Notes: generated by a model from the sequence alone, not told the origin. A stretch of 61,590 bases of DNA, filler included, from Actinobacteria bacterium UBA7524 (GCA_002478275.1; 6 parts of 6 records of this genome joined end to end with filler, not necessarily neighbours in it); one strand, 5' to 3'. Shown: positions 50 to 8,040, numbered from the whole stretch's first letter. Program-made: numbers and translations.

Positions 50-3000
50 CTAAAGGCCCGAAGAACCATCCCCATATGGGGTATCCGGCTCGGAGTCCAT
101 GGCCAGGATCGCTTCGTACAGGCGCATCGTCTCGGCGGACGGGTCGATACCCAGGTCCTCAGTCAGCTTACTTCNNNNNNNNNNNNNNNNNNNTTGCAGC
201 GCATCATCGCCTGGTACACGTCCTCGCGCCACGCGTCGACCGATGACGCGCGGCGTAGGTACTCCAGCGCCGAATCGTAGTCGCCGCGCGTCTCGAAGAA
301 GCGTCCGGCCAGGAGCATGGCTGCGCAGAAGTCCTGGCGAGTCCGCNNNNNNNNNNNNNNNNNNNNNNNNNNNNNNNNNNNNNNNNNNNNNNNNNNNNNN
401 NNNNNNNNNNNNNNNNNNNNNNNNNNNNNNNNNNNNNNNNNNNNNNNNNNNNNNNNNNNNNNNNNNNNNNNNNNNNNNNNNNNNNNNNNNNNNNNNNNNN
501 NNNNNNCGCAGAAGTCCTGGCGAGTCCGCTCCCGGATCTCGCCGAACCAGTCGTCATAGACGTCGCCAGGCAGGAGCTCCCCCCTGTAGACGTCGGCGAC
601 CGCCCGGGCCGCGGATGCCATGCACTCCACATCACCGGCCCGCTCGGCGGCCTTCAGCTGTGCGATCGCGGCGTCCAGGTCGTCCAGGTCGCTCGACACC
701 GCCGCGGTGACGCGGCACAGTCCACCCGCCGTGTGCACGTAGTTGTCCGCATGTCGGGGCGTATGCTTGCCGCCGAGGATGCTCTTCANNNNNNNNNNNN
801 NNNNNNNNNNNNNNNNNNNNNNNNNNNNNNNNNNNNNNNNNNNNNNNNNNNNNNNNNNNNNNNNNNNNNNNNNNNNNNNNNNNNNNNNNNNNNNNNNNNN
901 NNNNNNNNNNNNNNNNNNNNNNNNNNNNNNNNNNNNNNNNNNNNNNNNNNNNNNNNNNNNNNNNNNNNNNNCACGTGACGTAGTAGTTGTTGCGAGCGCT
1001 CTCCAGACTCAGGTTCGGCCACAGATGCTCGAGCAGCATGTCACGCGATACATCCTGCCCGCGACGCATGACGAGCATCAGGAACATGGCGCGCGCTTTG
1101 CGCTTGCGCCACGCGACGTCTGGGATTGCGCCGTACTCGGTGGTCACGCGAAGTCCGCCGAACAGTTGGACGCGACAGAACGCCTGTGACTCGGCATCGG
1201 ACTCGAAGGACCCTGCCTCGTCCGCGCGCACCGACGCACTGAGGCGGGAACGCAGCGCCTCTACGGTCTCCGGGTCGCAGATCTCGGGGGCCGCGAGCAG
1301 TGCCTCTGCGGCGGTTTCGGGTGGAAGGAGCGCTATCAGGCGAGTCGGCAGCATCTCGGCCCCCANNNNNNNNNNNNNNNNNNNNNNNNNNNNNNNNNNN
1401 NNNNNNNNNNNNNNNNNNNNNNNNNNNNNNNNNNNNNNNNNNNNNNNNNTCCTGGATCCGTGCGTCCTGCACCCGGGCCAGCGACCGCAGGACCACTTGC
1501 GAGGCCAGTGTCCCGGCAAGGATCATCATCGCCGCCGCCAGCAGCGGCAGGAGCGCCGGGAACGACCGGATGTAGAACGAGCCCTGCAGGTTGAGGGAGC
1601 CGGTGCTGATGTACTCGGCATGCGGCGCGAGACGGGTGATCGCGGTTGCGGCGTCACCGTCGCGACGGTCACACTCGGCGAGCACCAGGTCCGCCTTGAG
1701 GTGGTGAGCGCAGGCGTTGGGGTCGGGAAGCTGCTGCTTGACGGACTGAGCAGCACGCGCGGCACCTTGCTGGTCGCCGAGCGCAAGGAGCGAGGCAGCG
1801 ACCTCGATGCGCGCGGCGAGCCGGAAAAGGTCGAGGGAGCCAGCCAATGGCGCCATCGCCCCGTCAGCCCGTTCAGCAAGCGCAAGTGCACGACCGGCGT
1901 CGCCGTGCGCGCGAACTGCCTGTGCGTACATCGCCCAGCCAACGGCCAATCCGAACGTGTCATCTCGCCCCGCAAGCAGACGGGATGACTCAGCGAACGC
2001 GTCCTCCGAATCGCGCAACCCAGCCCGTGTGGCGAGAACACCCGCGAGCGTCCCTAAGACATAGCCCCGCAGATGATGGAGTCCGAGGCTGTCGGTCTCC
2101 TGAAGCACGCTCGCCAGCAGCTGGCGCGCATCGTCGACCAATCCAAGTTCCAACAGCGTGACACCGTGGTTTGCGCGTACCATGAGTCGCTGCACCGAGG
2201 ACAGGTCGCCGCGCCTGCTCACCCTACCGACCGCTGATTCGGCGAGGTCCCAACGCCCGCACGCCCCCCCTTGAACAGCCGCCAGTGAGTTCACCGCAAA
2301 CACGTGCTCGTCAGAACCCTCGTCTACGCCGGACAGCATTCCCTGTACGCGCACCGCACATTCGAGCGCGATCGCGAGATTCCCCGCATGCGAGTGGGCG
2401 ATGGCCCGGTATGCCTCAATAACGCAACACACGAGCGGAGGAGCAGCGGACAGTGCGGTTGTCGAGAGGTCTGCGATGATTCCCGGCACTTCTCCACTGC
2501 GTCCCACATCGAGCGCGAGGCGGGCCATCAGCATCGCGGACTCCACTACCAGCTCGTTCTCACCTGCATGCTCAGCCAGACGCCGGGCCAACACAGCGTG
2601 GCTCATCGCCTCATCGATGCGCTCCTGCTGCCGGAGCACCGTGGCGCTGAGGAGCAGGAGTCTCGGATTGTCGGATAGGGAGATTGGCGAAACACGCGCC
2701 AGGCACTCGGCCATCGCGAGCGGCCCCACCGCCCGCAGTACCCTCGGTCCGACTGACTCACACCATCGCGCAACCTCATCGGGAGTGCAGGCTCCCGTCA
2801 GTACACCCAGCACGCGCACGTAGTCGTCGTGGGTCAGTAGACACTTGATGGCTGCAGTTCGGATGCACTCAGCAGTCGAGGGGTCCAGTCGTTCCGCCGC
2901 CACCTCGACAACCACCTCACGTAGCGAAGCATGCGTTCTGAACTGGGCGAGCTCGTTGAGTTCCTCATGCGAGAGCCGGAATAGGGGAACCGCCCTGCTT

Positions 3001-3854
3001 AGCGCACGGAAGTCGATGCGGACGGCGGGCCCGTCAAGGCAGTTGCGTACGTCACGCAGTTCACCGACCTGGAGCATCGATGCAGCGTAGAGTGCTCGAA
3101 CCGACTCGTCCTTCAGGGCCGTGAGCATGCGTCGGATATGCCACCTCAAGTCACGCGACAGCGGACCGTCGATGTCGATTTCCGGGTGGCTGATCATGAG
3201 ACACACCAGTGCAGGCTGGCCTCCTGAGCGATCCAGGAGCGCGTCCACCACCCCATCAGGCCCTGGCTCTCCGAGCCAACCGTCCATCAGCCTGACCACT
3301 TCATCGCGGGTGAATCGGAGATCGAGATCCTCGATGACCCATTCCGTGGCAGGACTGACGGGAACCGAGTCCTCAAGCGACCTGCACGTGACCACCAGAC
3401 ATGTGCCGCCGCTCGTGCGCTCGCGCAGTGTCTGGGAGAGGTCTCGAACTGACTCGAGGTCCTCCAGGACATCGGCGCCGTCAAGCACGATGCACAGGGG
3501 CTGCCCCACCATGGAGTCCAGTTCGCCCATCAGAGACAGCATCCACCCGGAGCGGGCTGACTCTATCGGGCCCACTGCAGCAGTGGGCCCCTGGCGCTCA
3601 GTGCCTGGGTCCAGCGCCGAGACCAGCGCTGCCAGGATGTCTTCCTCGGACCCTCCGCGGTCCCCGAGATTCACCCAGAAGCAGGCCGCGAACCCCCGTG
3701 ACCGCGCAAACTGCGCTGCGAGCACGCTCTTCCCGTAGCCGGACGGCGCCACGATAATCGTCAACGCCGGAGCGCGCCGCTTGAAAAGCCTGACAAGACT
3801 ACTGCGTTCGAGTACGTTCCCGAAGTCGGGAATCGCACAACCCACCGTCTCCAT
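50..3854 (-). CDS. MalT-like STAND NTPase/TPR transcriptional regulator with C-terminal winged helix and BTAD (SARP-type) domains; split across N gaps
   Basis: N-terminus LERSSL...IVAPSGYGKSVL (Walker A), LCIVLDGAD, DLRFTRDE as in MalT. ORF 632-1519 gives VQLFGGLRV...WRKRKARAMFLMLV...SRDMLLEHLWP (SARP wHTH). ORFs 163-738 and 50-232 give VYRGELLPGDVYDDW...DAWREDVYQAMMRC...LTEDLGIDPSAET (BTAD). All frame changes fall at N gaps. ATG at 3854 follows an AGGGGGAG RBS. Confidence 0.85.
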
Positions 3855-3900
3855 AGCACTCCCCCTCACACCGGTGCTGGAGACCCCCCGTGATGCGCAC

Positions 3901-3932
3901 TATTGCACCTGATACTGTGGCGGAATGCAATA
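3901..3932 (-). promoter_or_regulatory. Inverted repeat TATTGCA-N18-TGCAATA overlapping a possible TTGCAT-N17-TGCAAT promoter upstream of the regulator
   Basis: Read directly from the intergenic gap between the DUF5317-like gene and the regulator start. Confidence 0.35.
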
Positions 3933-3969
3933 ACCTGTCCGCACTCAACTCCTTGATGCGTGCCGACGC

Positions 3970-4521
3970 TCAGGCGACCGGACGCCTGCTCGCGACGAAC
4001 ACCCACCCGCCGAGCCCGAACGCCAACAGCAGGTCCCCCACACTCACTACGCCCCGCTGCCACGCCGGACCGGGCACCGCGATCACGTCGGCAAGGAGCG
4101 TGAGCCGTGTGCCGTCCTCAATCGGCCGATGCAGGCAGCTGGCTTCCATCGCCAGTCGCGCCGCTTCACGCGAGCCCCCGAGCTCGCCGGCAGCCTTGAG
4201 GCTCACCGGCATGCCGCTGTTGAAGCCGATCACGAGGATGTTCATCGCGATCCCGAGTCCGGCGAACGCCAGCATCCAGCGCCTGGGCGCGTTGTAGAAG
4301 AGCACAAACGCCAGGACCGCCATCATCAGCAGCCAGACGATGATACTGAGCGCACACTCAAGCCCAAGGCGAGCGGAGATCATCGGCCACAGCACCTGAA
4401 GCGGCAGCACGACAAACAGCACCGTCTCACCAGCAAGCTTCTCACGCTGCAACAGCCGCAGAGAGCCCCCGGTGACGAGCGAGAGCGCCAGCCACACGAC
4501 GATGATCTCGAACATGATCAC
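3970..4521 (-). CDS. DUF5317-like multi-pass membrane protein; putative intramembrane peptidase
   Basis: 183 aa, hydrophobic, with motifs GGSLRLL, GIAMNILVIGFNSGMPVS, LTLLADVIAVP and VSVGDLL typical of DUF5317. Start overlaps the upstream stop. Confidence 0.75.
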   Translation of the reverse strand: MIMFEIIVVWLALSLVTGGSLRLLQREKLAGETVLFVVLPLQVLWPMISARLGLECALSIIVWLLMMAVLAFVLFYNAPRRWMLAFAGLGIAMNILVIGFNSGMPVSLKAAGELGGSREAARLAMEASCLHRPIEDGTRLTLLADVIAVPGPAWQRGVVSVGDLLLAFGLGGWVFVASRRPVA

Positions 4522-5738
4522 CGGATCGGCCCGCCGGTCTCGGCAACGAACCGCACCACGCGGTCCAACTCCTCAACGACCGCCAAGCGACGTCCGGACT
4601 CCTCGGCCCTGAGCGTCGCGAGCGCCGGACTGACTCCCTGACTGCGCCGCAGTCGATCATAGTGGGAACACACGCCGATGATGTCCGCGCCGAGCGGCGC
4701 GTCTGGAGAACCGGCGCGCTCGTGATGCTCCGCGATCAGCGGCGCGACCGGCGCGAGGAACGGGATCTGCGCCACGATGTCGGCTCCTCGCGCCGCGTGG
4801 ACCGCCTCCTCCTCGTCCTCGGGATGTCCGATGCGTCCAAGGTCGTGCAGTAGCGCTGCATATCGCAGGTGTTCTAGTTCAGCGCTCGGCAGAGCCATCC
4901 TCCGTCCCACTGCAATCGACAGATCGGCCACGCGCTGCGCATGCCCGGCGTCGTGCGGCCGGTCCAGCTCGGCCGCATGCGCCAGCGCCTCGATGGTGTC
5001 GCCATACGCGCGCCGAATGCGTAGGTACAGGTTGAAGCTGTTCTGCAGAATGAGCGTCATGAGCACCGCGATGGCAAATCCCCACATGCCCAGCGCTGGA
5101 TAGACCCGCAGAACGACCGCGGCCATCGCGATGTGGACGAGGTACACGTTGGCAAGCGGACGGAGCAGTAGTTGGACTCCCTGGATGACCGATGCACCGC
5201 CGGTCAGACGCTCCTGGACCGAGACTGTCAACACGTCGAGCAGCGCGTAGACGAGGCCGACGGCGAGTATCGGGATCAGCGCCAGATCACCCACCCGCTC
5301 ATCCGTCAGCACTATCCTGAGCAGCGGCTGCGTCGGCGCGACCAGTCCCAAGACGGCGACGGCTCGCACCGCATCGATCCCGCGACGTGCCGACTGGGCG
5401 CCGGGGGATTGAGCGAACCGCGCGGCCGCATCCAGCAGTCCGACGGCAGCGGTCGAGGCAAGCGCCTCGGGCACGTCCAGGACGCCCAGTGCACACAGTC
5501 CCGCCATCACGGTGATGGGGACCTCATCACCCTGGGGCAAGCGCAGAGCCATCAACCTGAGAACGAAGAAGGCTACGGCGAAGCCTCCAGCGGACAGGTA
5601 GTCGAAGCCTGCCGACGCATCCGCCTGGCTCGTTGCATAGAGCGCAGCAGTGACTCCGGCCACGGACAGCAGGACCACGAAGAGTACCTGCGCCGTAGCC
5701 CCGTTGGCCTGACGTTCCGGCACCCTCGGCGCCATCAT
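4518..5738 (-). CDS. Membrane-sensor HD-domain protein with a degenerate HD-GYP domain
   Basis: About 240-aa multi-TM N-terminus, then GHAQRV...AALLHDLGRIG...EHHER. The DGxGYP loop is absent and the AVxDxYDAM segment reads GVCSHYDRL. Confidence 0.85.
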   Translation of the reverse strand: MMAPRVPERQANGATAQVLFVVLLSVAGVTAALYATSQADASAGFDYLSAGGFAVAFFVLRLMALRLPQGDEVPITVMAGLCALGVLDVPEALASTAAVGLLDAAARFAQSPGAQSARRGIDAVRAVAVLGLVAPTQPLLRIVLTDERVGDLALIPILAVGLVYALLDVLTVSVQERLTGGASVIQGVQLLLRPLANVYLVHIAMAAVVLRVYPALGMWGFAIAVLMTLILQNSFNLYLRIRRAYGDTIEALAHAAELDRPHDAGHAQRVADLSIAVGRRMALPSAELEHLRYAALLHDLGRIGHPEDEEEAVHAARGADIVAQIPFLAPVAPLIAEHHERAGSPDAPLGADIIGVCSHYDRLRRSQGVSPALATLRAEESGRRLAVVEELDRVVRFVAETGGPIR

Positions 5739-7003
5739 GAGACGGCCTCTCCGGGCAGAGGCTCGTCGGACAGCGCATTGAATGCGGCCACCAGTCGCTC
5801 ATCGAGTTGCCTGCCTGCAACGCGCTTGAGTTCGGCGCGCGCGGCTTCGTCGGACATTCCCGGGCGATACGCACGGTCCGAGGTCATCGCGTCATACGAG
5901 TCGACGACGGCCAGAATCCGCGCGAGCAGCGGGATGGCCGGACCGACGAGTCCGTCAGGATACCCCGCCCCGTCGATGCGCTCGTGGTGGTGCCTGATGA
6001 TCGGCACGACATCTGAGAGGAACGCGACGTCCTCGGCAAGTTCCGCGCCGATCACCGGGTGGCGCCGCACCTGCCGCACCTCGACGGCACTGAGTTGCTC
6101 GGCCGAGGTGAGTGTCGACTGGCTGAGGCCGATCTTGCCAACGTCGTGCAGCAAGGCCGCTCGCTCCGCAAGGTCCACCTCGGCAGGCGTGAGGCCGAGC
6201 GCTGCTGCCAGGCGCCGCGCGTGTACTGCCACGCGCTCGGAGTGGCCTCGGGTGTAGCGGTCCTTCGCCTCGATCGCCGTGACAAGCGAACGTACGGTCT
6301 CGGTGTAGGCCTCATTCAACTCCGCGTACACCCGGAACGTCTGCCGGGCCATCGCGAACGGGAGTACGAGCAACAGGAGGCCGAACCAGGAGGATGAGGC
6401 GATGAGGTGAGCCATCAGCCAGCCCAATAGGGCCAGAACCAGGAGACTGACCCAGTACGAAGCAGGATTCAAGGCGTCCACCGCGTCGCGTGGGCTGACG
6501 CCAGTACGCAGAACGACGGCGACGCCCACGAGTGTCAGATTGACCACGAAGAAGACCACGACGCCTGCTGCAGCGGCCAGCAGGCCACCTTCGACCGCTC
6601 GATTCAGTGACTCAAGTGACTGCATCGGGACTCCCCCGAGCGCAATGAACACGCAGCCGGACGCAGCGCCCGCAAGGAACAGCTGGGCGAGATTCCCAAG
6701 CATCAGCACCGGTGACTTGTGGTCACGGATCTCTTGTATGGAAACCGCACCTGCAAGGGCCAACAGCCCGCCAGCCGCCGGACCCGCATAGAGGACGCCG
6801 GCGAAGACCGAAGCGAAGATGAGCGAGAGCGAGACAGCGAACGGTAGCTCAATCTCCATGTTCGACAACGCCGCAGTGAGCATCAACAGAGCAACCACGG
6901 GCCAGGGTTCCGTGATCGGCCACTGCCGAAACACGAACTGCCCCACGCCAACGGCCACGCCTGACAGGAGCAGCACATACGTGATGAGGCGATGCCGAAT
7001 CAT
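5735..7003 (-). CDS. Membrane-sensor HD-GYP cyclic-dinucleotide phosphodiesterase
   Basis: Multi-TM N-terminus plus the complete motif set KDRYTRGHSERV, AALLHDVGKIG, HPVIG, HHHERIDGAGYPDGL, ARILAVVDSYDAMTSDRAYR. Confidence 0.93.
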   Translation of the reverse strand: MIRHRLITYVLLLSGVAVGVGQFVFRQWPITEPWPVVALLMLTAALSNMEIELPFAVSLSLIFASVFAGVLYAGPAAGGLLALAGAVSIQEIRDHKSPVLMLGNLAQLFLAGAASGCVFIALGGVPMQSLESLNRAVEGGLLAAAAGVVVFFVVNLTLVGVAVVLRTGVSPRDAVDALNPASYWVSLLVLALLGWLMAHLIASSSWFGLLLLVLPFAMARQTFRVYAELNEAYTETVRSLVTAIEAKDRYTRGHSERVAVHARRLAAALGLTPAEVDLAERAALLHDVGKIGLSQSTLTSAEQLSAVEVRQVRRHPVIGAELAEDVAFLSDVVPIIRHHHERIDGAGYPDGLVGPAIPLLARILAVVDSYDAMTSDRAYRPGMSDEAARAELKRVAGRQLDERLVAAFNALSDEPLPGEAVS

Positions 7004-7026
7004 GCCGTCGCCTCAGGAAGGGGATG

Positions 7027-7248
7027 TGGGCCAACACCGCGCTCGAACTGGTTTACATCTTCCAGGCAGCTCCGCCCCCGATAACGAGAGCGGCGAGTGA
7101 CGCGAGGAGAAAAGCGATACGCTTCATGTGAGAAGACCCCCTGTCTATGTGGTGTCTTCTCCCACCCCGCTAGTGATGGAAGAACCCTGTCCGCTCCGCT
7201 CGATCGTGTGCTGACAGTGTCCAAACCGGTGCTCACGGCGTTGGCCCA
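7027..7248 (-). promoter_or_regulatory. Predicted mRNA structure around the peptide gene: 15-bp long-range helix plus an RBS-sequestering hairpin
   Basis: mRNA UGGGCCAACGCCGUG (7248-7234) pairs with CGCGGUGUUGGCCCA (7041-7027) with two G-U pairs. GAGAAGAC/GTCTTCTC stem at 7130-7161 encloses the RBS. Confidence 0.55.
7053..7127 (-). CDS. Small signal-peptide-like precursor, 24 aa (MKRIAFLLASLAALVIGGGAAWKM)
   Basis: Translated by hand; below the ORF-track cutoff. ATG at 7127, TAA at 7053, AGGGGG RBS upstream, co-oriented inside the cluster. Basic n-region, hydrophobic h-region, GGA, short tail. Confidence 0.8.
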   Translation of the reverse strand: MKRIAFLLASLAALVIGGGAAWKM

Positions 7249-7258
7249 AACTTGGGAT

Positions 7259-7921
7259 CTATGTGGTTGTCAAGAACCCGAGCCGCCTGTTGATCGCATC
7301 AAGCGTTGCTCGGACGATGGAGTCTTTGTCGTTCTGACGCACCAGCGCAGAACCGGCGAAAGCCTGCTCGCCGAGCGAGGTCACCAGGACCACGCAAGAG
7401 ACCGCGACGCTCTCCCTCCCCAATCGGATGATCTCGACATCTTCAAGCGCGAAGGTGAATGCGCCCTGGAGATACTGCGCGATGGCATCGAGCGTGGCCT
7501 CGGCCACCAGGCGCTCCCTGCCCGTGCGACTCGCCGGACCAGTTGCCTTGCCAACGAACAACTCGCCTTCAAGCTCGAGCGCCACGCCGATGTTGACGTA
7601 GACGCCAACGACCTCGGCGTTGATGCTCTTGATCTGGGCGCGTGCGTGAGGCTTGACCGCCTCGGCCTGTGGGACACTCTCCTGGCCGAGCTGGGCAATG
7701 GAGATCTTCTTGTGGTCCACCGCTATGCCGAACGCCGCCATGAGTGTGGACTCGATGTCGCGCACGAGTTGCTTGGGCGCTTTTGACGGCAGCGCGAGGA
7801 CGTGTATCTCGTCGATGTGTCCGGCTGGGGACGTGACCACCCGTGCTGCGCGAATCTCGGAGACCTGCGAAAGGGCCTCTTCCATCTCGCTGATGATCGC
7901 CGGAGATACCACGGGCTCCAT
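7259..7921 (-). CDS. Conserved hypothetical protein with two LeuA-regulatory-domain-like repeats
   Basis: 220 aa with RBS AAGGAG. N-terminal DEIHVLA...PKQLVRDIESTL...VDHKKISIAQL, then two similar modules ending VAEATLDAIAQYL and IVRATLDAINRRL. Confidence 0.7.
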   Translation of the reverse strand: MEPVVSPAIISEMEEALSQVSEIRAARVVTSPAGHIDEIHVLALPSKAPKQLVRDIESTLMAAFGIAVDHKKISIAQLGQESVPQAEAVKPHARAQIKSINAEVVGVYVNIGVALELEGELFVGKATGPASRTGRERLVAEATLDAIAQYLQGAFTFALEDVEIIRLGRESVAVSCVVLVTSLGEQAFAGSALVRQNDKDSIVRATLDAINRRLGFLTTT

Positions 7922-8040
7922 CCGGGGCTCCTTGCTTCAACGAATGCTGCGACTGATGCTGCAGATGTGGTGCGCCTCGGTCCGTCCTTTGGTCACACTA
8001 TCCGCGACAAGCGAGCGTTGTCAACCGACGAGCGGCTGTG

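Follow-up and report, generated by a model that had tools for sequence, protein, structure and literature searches.

The membrane HD-GYP enzymes of the MASE9 and HdgA/HdgB type are widespread and their input is the missing piece; does a very small protein encoded beside them provide it? The question is raised by a gene cluster of Actinobacteria bacterium UBA7524 (GCA_002478275.1), found in a stretch of 61,590 nucleotides (nt), here called the window, in which several contigs are joined by runs of N. Five co-oriented minus-strand open reading frames (ORFs) lie at 3970..7921 of the window, on the 8,062-nt contig G000:C12. In the direction of transcription they encode a cytoplasmic protein (p220), a hydrophobic peptide of 24 amino acids (aa), an intact membrane HD-GYP protein (HD1), its degenerate paralogue (HD2) and a membrane protein of the DUF5317 family (Table 1); stop and start codons overlap by 4 nt at both the HD1/HD2 and the HD2/DUF5317 junctions. 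An earlier note on this DNA had read the cluster as a new peptide-signalling system, in which DUF5317 would cleave the 24-aa precursor and the paired HD-GYP receptors would sense the short tail released. The layout that it described was confirmed in full, with all five ORFs in place, the 24-aa ORF as quoted, the intact and the degenerate HD gene, DUF5317 and the overlapping codons. The reading that we favour, and that we hold to be about evenly balanced between right and wrong, is that the small ORF encodes a single-pass micro-protein that modulates the MASE9 HD-GYP pair and is made from behind a structured RNA leader.

The small ORF has a ribosome-binding site, AGGGGG, 9 nt before its ATG and ends 49 nt upstream of HD1. 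Its peptide opens with MKR, continues with an uncharged span of 17-19 residues ending in G-G-A and closes with a tail of four residues; Pfam and NCBIfam returned no family match for it. We fetched 8 kb around each DUF5317 match in 40 relatives of the same order and found a homologue of 24-26 codons in 31/36 loci, that is in 31/31 of those that were testable. The five misses fell at a contig edge or at upstream spacer DNA that is absent from the sequence, and in one of them (L102) the ORF was present once the missing DNA had been fetched. Loci anchored on p220 contained the small ORF in 67/80 cases and in 67/67 testable ones, all 13 misses having fewer than 210 nt after p220, and co-directional loci from other classes of the phylum contained it in 9/9. 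The earlier note had staked its proposal on a conserved small ORF at homologous loci, and one was present at every testable locus of these three sets, with the pattern of basic start, hydrophobic stretch, G-G-A and short tail recurring.

The small ORF is a real gene whose codons are under purifying selection. Nucleotide entropy at its first, second and third codon positions was 0.93, 0.41 and 1.37 (31 sequences). In the same sequences the ratio of nonsynonymous to synonymous differences (pN/pS) was 0.485 overall, 0.379 over codons 2-20 and 0.787 over the four tail codons, and the same DNA read in two shifted frames gave 0.93 and 2.59. One run of a soil metatranscriptome yielded a 168-nt contig over 7020-7185 with a single mismatch, and a second, partial contig within HD1; such RNA-library contigs report presence and give no level, ends or strand, DNA carry-over is possible, and stretches of the window that they leave uncovered are uninformative.

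Within the peptide, constraint is uneven. The 79 distinct peptides collected measured 24 aa (56 peptides), 25 aa (19) or 26 aa (4); M1, R3 and A20 were invariant in them and K2, L11 and G19 were conserved in at least 90%; L11, A12, A13, G19 and A20 were conserved across several classes, and no Cys was conserved. The helix carries a stripe of small residues (S10, A13, S/A/G17 and A20, with G18-G19). The tails, 4-6 residues long, came in 71 different forms among the 79 peptides and follow phylogeny; their composition, aromatic plus basic, is typical of a membrane-interface anchor. Judged from these alignments the peptide is constrained as a protein, most in the helix (residues 8-20) and least in the tail. 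The earlier note had placed the signal in this short tail, and such a role sits poorly with a segment that is the least constrained of the peptide and has the make-up of an interface anchor, next to a constrained helix. By inspection the peptide also looks like a Sec type I signal peptide, with MKR, a 13-residue hydrophobic core, G/S/A at -3 and Ala at -1, whose 'mature' part would be 4-6 residues.

About 120 nt before the small ORF, a region that the earlier note does not mention, are much better conserved than the flanking genes. This leader contains a box, AGCGGAGCGG, at 7200-7191, followed by a 5-bp hairpin, CCAUC/GGUGG, formed by 7179-7175 with 7166-7162, whose 8-nt loop (7174-7167) bears the third AGCGG of the leader. 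An 8-bp stem, GAGAAGAC/GUCUUCUC, then pairs 7161-7154 with 7137-7130 around a variable loop of 20-50 nt. The ribosome-binding site occupies 7142-7137, and the 3' arm of this last stem fills the spacer between it and the AUG. A covariance model of the leader (R1), built from an alignment of 76 distinct sequences, matches the window at 7119-7244 with 133.6 bits and found the leader in 36/41 genomes of the order, one copy beside each p220 and none elsewhere. A scan against Rfam gave no family match for the leader; its sole hit in 3800-8000 was CRISPR-DR29 at 6663-6700 (plus strand), which lies inside the HD1 coding sequence and is attributed to chance (E 0.2).

Base pairing was assessed in 49 sequences, including other classes, in an alignment that had been fitted to the model and so favours pairing: 96.6% of cells were paired, 11/17 pairs had changed on both sides, and 31 double-change cells kept the helices against 8.9 expected. 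None of 500 shuffles reached the observed values, and controls with slid partners were 43-63% paired. Compensatory changes are also visible by eye, from CCAU/AUGG to CCGU/ACGG in the leader of genome G020, and from AGAAGACC/GGUCUUCU to AGUAGACC/GGUCUACU in locus L161 of a distant class. This covariation indicates that the leader is a conserved structured RNA, and we regard it as a candidate new cis-regulatory RNA motif. Its orientation and its distance to the start codon of the small ORF are fixed. Where p220 is divergent the AGCGG boxes still stand 45-70 nt upstream of the small ORF, which assigns the leader to the operon of the small ORF and the HD genes instead of the 3' end of p220. With its three AGCGG boxes the leader looks more like the target of a protein than like a small-molecule pocket; a CsrA-like reading of the boxes as GGA motifs was considered, and nothing supports it. 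A reading frame beginning MGED (7166-7128, minus strand; its start is (A/G)UGGGAGAAGAC) runs across part of the leader and in many cases stops at the small ORF's AUGA; neither its frame nor its length is kept between loci, and it is probably no gene.

HD1 contains the HD-GYP motif H..HD..H..HHE..D..GYP. Its catalytic residues H254, H286, D287, H315, H339, H340, E341, G347, Y348, D368 and D371 were invariant in 28 orthologues, the P of GYP being variable. HD2 lacks an intact HHE..GYP: the window copy reads EHHERAGSPD without GYP, the HHE..GYP block is lost in most of 29 orthologues, the HD pair is lost as well in several, and the invariant residues of the 29-sequence alignment are M1, T248, E257, G265 and L296 only. 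HD2 is therefore predicted to be a catalytically dead pseudo-enzyme partner of HD1. The N-terminal membrane domain of HD1 is probably of the MASE9 type: the Pfam model PF20972 matches 17/28 HD1 orthologues (best E 2e-11), and a feature-atlas comparison of the HD1 membrane region with MASE9 clusters gave a score of 0.91 with 203 shared features. This genome has 8 GGDEF and 13 HD_5 matches, and the genomes examined have 8-15 and 8-13 each; because they carry so many, cyclic di-GMP (c-di-GMP) is plausible as substrate, and genome context makes it a reasonable one for the predicted HD1 phosphodiesterase.

The gene that closes the cluster encodes an assured member of DUF5317 (PF17248, 76.6 bits against a cut-off of 25). 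Its AlphaFold2 model, with a mean predicted local distance difference test (pLDDT) score of 95.9, has five helices and a small four-stranded beta domain. Foldseek against the PDB returned nothing at E<=0.001, and a wide structural superposition gave a top Z of 9.0 with generic helical rows, below the meaningful level for helical proteins; these nulls are evidence neither for a new fold nor against a peptidase fold. In 85 distinct sequences drawn from several classes a polar set, N77, N94, N101, D145, S160 and D163, is near-invariant, each residue occurring in 84-85 of them; D145 occurs in 84/85, as does D163, which lies in an S-x-G-D at the start of the last helix. GxGD proteases (presenilin, prepilin peptidase) were not among the rows of the fold searches, and DUF5317 has only five helices. 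By the positive-inside rule the beta domain and the polar set of the model would face outwards, on the same side as the peptide tail. No fused forms of DUF5317 were detected among longer proteins at E<=1e-5, which is weak evidence.

The cytoplasmic protein p220 belongs to no family of Pfam or NCBIfam. Identity to the window copy was 58-90% in 25 of 26 aligned orthologues of the order and 46% in the remaining one, a frameshifted row. In its AlphaFold2 model (pLDDT 84) residues 93-215 superpose on 3f6g_B (Z 8.9, root-mean-square deviation 3.1, 109 residues aligned), Foldseek matched 3f6h_B (E 1.3e-05), and this C-terminal domain resembles the regulatory, amino-acid-binding part of citramalate synthase/LeuA. 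For residues 1-80 the matches were ferredoxin-like domains (Z 7-8.5). On this model p220 looks like a ligand sensor.

How constant is the association of these genes? Among same-order relatives the order p220, small ORF, HD1, HD2 and DUF5317 recurs. Of 301 sampled genomes of the phylum, a set that contains non-independent relatives and ten flagged unpublished genomes, 83 had p220 and 114 had DUF5317; the two occurred together in 62, p220 occurred by itself in 21 and DUF5317 by itself in 52, and 166 had neither. In the sample, 20 genomes came from other families of the same class, and all of these lacked both genes. An HD-like ORF lay within 1.5 kb of DUF5317 in 18 of the 30 best loci of the phylum, and in 3 of these 30 loci the HD genes come after other small ORFs, whose products open with basic residues, have a helix and finish with G-A-x-x-K-W-x. 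A second arrangement, with p220 divergent and DUF5317 convergent, was studied in 17 loci picked for p220 and DUF5317 lying close together; the small ORF was co-oriented directly upstream of HD1 in 11 of them. At L198 (2197-2669) the micro-protein gene occurs twice, as two tandem, near-identical hydrophobic ORFs of 29 aa ahead of an HD gene that is divergent from DUF5317. In some classes the module is ordered as in the window. There secA follows it (L165, L167, L170), and in genome G022 (L150, 239-817) an ORF resembling a ribosome-hibernation factor (hpf), recognised by eye only, precedes p220; the module thus sits in an hpf-secA region. Three loci of other classes (L177, L178 and L182) have a gamma-glutamyltranspeptidase gene on the far side of p220.

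Departures from this layout are informative about its parts. Four loci of families f44 and f73 (L220, L222, L224 and L226) keep a AGCGGAGCG box, HD1, HD2, DUF5317 and p220 and have no hydrophobic small ORF, L224 having a 33-aa non-hydrophobic ORF at its position. In genome G133, which is 99% complete, p220 is accompanied by the small ORF, HD1 and HD2, and no DUF5317 was found; in three f52 genomes DUF5317 is unlinked, beside EamA/panCD genes. Genome G020 has, at L149 (1720-1917), a leader with compensatory hairpin changes and a divergent 30-aa hydrophobic ORF without G-G-A, together with a single 526-aa HD-GYP protein, a 358-aa ORF without family, a p220 with an in-frame TGA and no DUF5317. 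The invariant linkage is that of leader, micro-protein, HD1 and HD2, in that order.

Because this linkage is invariant, the helix constrained and the tail like an interface anchor, we read the peptide as an uncleaved single-pass micro-protein. The membrane topology, binding partners, substrate and direction of regulation that we infer are as follows. HD1 and HD2 would form a c-di-GMP-type phosphodiesterase module of the HdgA/HdgB kind, an active HD1 with a dead HD2, here translationally coupled to DUF5317. The micro-protein would remain uncleaved and cross the membrane once, its basic N-terminus in the cytoplasm and its aromatic and basic C-terminus at the outer interface. Its small-residue stripe may pack on the MASE9 domain of HD1/HD2, on DUF5317 or on both, and in this way the micro-protein would set or relay the input of the enzymes, as small membrane proteins modulate sensor kinases. 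The structured leader, whose last stem covers the spacer between ribosome-binding site and AUG, would gate synthesis of the micro-protein and probably also that of the downstream enzymes; a factor, for which the always-linked p220 is a candidate, may bind at the AGCGG boxes.

Several observations weigh against this proposal. The basic, hydrophobic and small-residue layout of the peptide matches what a cleavable signal peptide would show, and its Ala at -1 is invariant, so cleavage is possible, and the G-A before the tail is kept in very divergent relatives, which a pure anchor model does not demand. The micro-protein is missing in 6/17 loci of the divergent arrangement, and the enzymes can therefore work without it. 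The MASE9 model of Pfam has no match to the window's own HD1 at E<=1, and structure searches with p220 returned no recognised RNA-binding fold. The counts of stop/start overlap in relatives lean towards overlap, the start nearest the upstream stop having been chosen.

If DUF5317 or signal peptidase cuts the peptide behind its invariant G-A, the peptide could be a precursor: MASE9 would read either the tail set free or the helix that stays in the membrane, and this product would control cyclic-dinucleotide breakdown. We consider this unlikely. The signal-peptide-like layout with A20 invariant and G19 beside it would fit, as would a tail that is the most variable part of the peptide, as expected of a specificity determinant, and that differs between the two modules carried by this genome bin; DUF5317, for its part, has an enzyme-like polar set of two near-invariant Asp (one in S-x-G-D), three Asn and a Ser, and a beta domain predicted to lie outside with the tail. 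Peptide signals cut from signal peptides have precedents in SHP/Rgg, PrgQ and the enterococcal pheromones. Yet DUF5317, which the earlier note took for the peptidase, matches no peptidase family or fold; it was not found in G133, which has the small ORF, is unlinked in the f52 genomes, and is kept in four loci that have no hydrophobic ORF. The strongest constraint falls on the helix, not the tail, the G020 variant is entirely without G-G-A, and the loci examined showed no gene for an exporter or for a protease of the site-2 type. A conserved basic residue also stands three positions past the putative cleavage site, and a basic residue shortly after a cleavage site is unfavourable for Sec export. 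The most far-reaching form of this idea, in which DUF5317 would be a membrane peptidase or exporter of a new, Asp/Asn-based kind and the cut peptide the MASE9 input, gated by leader and p220 across deep-branching Actinomycetota, strikes us as quite improbable. If the peptide were such a precursor, it would add a peptide layer to c-di-GMP turnover and supply the long-sought input of MASE9 sensors.

Two further explanations dispense with a working peptide or with a working RNA, and we give little credence to either. The small ORF could be a cis-acting upstream ORF whose translation or membrane insertion, together with the leader, controls HD1-HD2, the peptide itself having no job; SecM and MifM are precedents, as arrest peptides that monitor insertion. 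Its place inside a structured leader at so short a distance from HD1, the stem at its start codon, which suggests translational gating, and the position of the module between hpf and secA in other classes all agree with such a role, as does an RNA-library contig that spans just the small ORF and part of the leader, although that contig gives neither RNA levels nor ends. Residue-specific conservation of L11, A12, A13, G19 and A20 across several classes is hard to reconcile with it; there is no evident arrest-type motif, and a regulatory ORF needs no small-residue stripe. The conserved element could instead be a DNA operator or promoter, the AGCGG boxes being transcription-factor sites on DNA rather than parts of an RNA structure. 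Three direct AGCGG repeats, the location of the element in the divergent p220/small-ORF intergenic region of many lineages and a sequence conservation far above the base-pair variation would be expected of an operator; compensatory double changes in 11/17 pairs, well above expectation and collapsing in the slid controls, the separate compensatory examples in G020 and L161, and an orientation and distance to the start codon that are always fixed would not. The single-pass micro-protein behind a structured leader remains the reading that we prefer.

The setting of the window copy bears on its origin. The same bin contains a second full module, L048 (G000:C30:113279-121713), on a 125-kb contig, with p220, leader, a 24-aa ORF ending in MARL, HD1, HD2 and DUF5317; the tails of the two small ORFs differ. 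The p220 of the window is nearest to genomes of another family, with 91% identity to G039 and 95% to copies in metagenome-assembled genomes, and the window copy is either a genuine paralogue of that module or the result of mis-binning of its contig. Its contig ends about 140 nt upstream of p220. Polysaccharide genes of the window lie beyond about 8,100, on another contig; because the contig of the cluster measures 8,062 nt they are not shown to be its neighbours, and an exopolysaccharide context for the cluster was rejected. A gene for a STAND-type ATPase regulator adjoins the module in this order only and is not part of it in other classes. Its homologue in G022 (1101 aa; L150, 4456-7761) is placed between HD2 and DUF5317, and the G020 version bears TPR and BTAD domains. 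A promoter scan returned a single sigma-70-like site, 76 nt upstream of p220, which is at chance level (1 found against 0.5 expected), and a terminator scan returned none inside the cluster. One contig of a biofilm metagenome (run X4), at a word depth of about 200-fold, matches 7110-7889 in p220 and the leader and differs at many positions; the same module is carried by a relative abundant in that sample.

Table 1. Features of the cluster and the adjoining regulator gene, in coordinates of the window.
Feature	Coordinates	Strand	Description and evidence
p220	7921..7259	minus	220 aa; cytoplasmic, with ferredoxin-like N-domain and LeuA/citramalate-synthase-regulatory-like C-domain (predicted from model)
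Structured RNA leader	7128..7244	minus	Covariance model, alignment of 76 distinct sequences
24-aa hydrophobic micro-protein gene	7127..7053	minus	ORF, ribosome-binding site, conservation, coding selection
HD1, membrane HD-GYP with putative MASE9-type N-terminal domain	7003..5735	minus	422 aa; HD_5 E 4.7e-34
HD2, degenerate membrane HD-GYP paralogue	5738..4518	minus	406 aa; HD 1.2e-10, HD_5 2.7e-09
DUF5317 membrane protein	4521..3970	minus	183 aa; PF17248 E 2.6e-21
STAND-type ATPase regulator gene, partly masked	1041..3869	minus	AAA_22/AAA_16 matches

How does the module compare with systems already described? In Streptomyces venezuelae, hdgA (vnz24090, a 6TM-HD-GYP protein, TM standing for transmembrane segments) is followed by hdgB (vnz24095, 6TM and degenerate, without GYP); according to the accessible portions of the reports the two genes probably share an operon, their products are bound to the membrane, and no phenotype followed from deleting them (PMC6205966, PMC13232838). 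HD1 and HD2 are likewise adjacent and co-oriented, intact then degenerate, and because the same pair, likened here by its described architecture, occurs in S. venezuelae, the paired membrane HD-GYPs represent the HdgA/HdgB arrangement and not a new architecture. The accessible portions of those reports mention no micro-protein, RNA leader, p220 or DUF5317, in which the present module differs. The membrane domain, too, has been published: according to the available text of Galperin and Chou, MASE9 was defined on Thermotoga maritima TM1467, with eight predicted membrane segments, ligand binding inside the membrane was proposed for it, and S. venezuelae HdgA is its sole studied member (bioRxiv 10.1101/2021.11.05.467447). 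TM1467 shares with HD1 a polytopic N-terminal membrane sensor fused to an HD-GYP domain, and what sets the present locus apart from such proteins is the micro-protein, a candidate for the MASE9 input. The earlier note had stated that no characterised system with this architecture was known; of its signalling proposal as a whole, the real, conserved module with its small ORF stood, and the peptidase, the tail signal and the architectural novelty found no support. The literature searched contains no description of the micro-protein, the leader, p220 or a link to DUF5317, a family that none of its papers names and whose name is also absent from the available text of Galperin and Chou. Nor did it contain, in the portions accessible, a link between HD-GYP proteins and a small membrane protein, a co-mention there standing in a cited title on SmeA.

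The comparison with peptide signalling is looser. The agr logic joins a precursor, a membrane peptidase and a membrane receptor, and Firmicutes pheromone precursors (SHP/Rgg, PrgQ, ComS) come from very short ORFs, basic at the start and hydrophobic further on. None of the five proteins here has an AgrB or kinase family, and the 79 peptides have no conserved Cys for a thiolactone; no AgrB, Eep-type or ATP-binding cassette (ABC) exporter gene and no Rgg-type receptor was seen in the loci examined. In contrast to those precursors, the conserved part of the peptide is the helix and not the C-terminal 'mature' end. The leader resembles RNA leaders that sequester the ribosome-binding site, and riboswitch platforms, in being a structured 5' leader whose last helix lies over the spacer between ribosome-binding site and start; it differs in having no match in Rfam, and its AGCGG boxes hint at a protein partner. 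It adds a candidate new cis-regulatory RNA motif, and the small ORF one more unannotated family of bacterial micro-proteins. In several classes of Actinomycetota the enzyme pair is accompanied by micro-protein, leader RNA, p220 and DUF5317, which offers testable handles on its input.

The closest parallel in kind is with MgrB-PhoQ, SafA, KdpF and AcrZ, small single-pass proteins of about 20-50 aa with one hydrophobic helix, encoded beside or co-regulated with a partner, that modulate membrane sensors or enzymes. The micro-protein has no sequence relation to any of these, and its proposed partner would be a cyclic-dinucleotide phosphodiesterase rather than a kinase or a pump.

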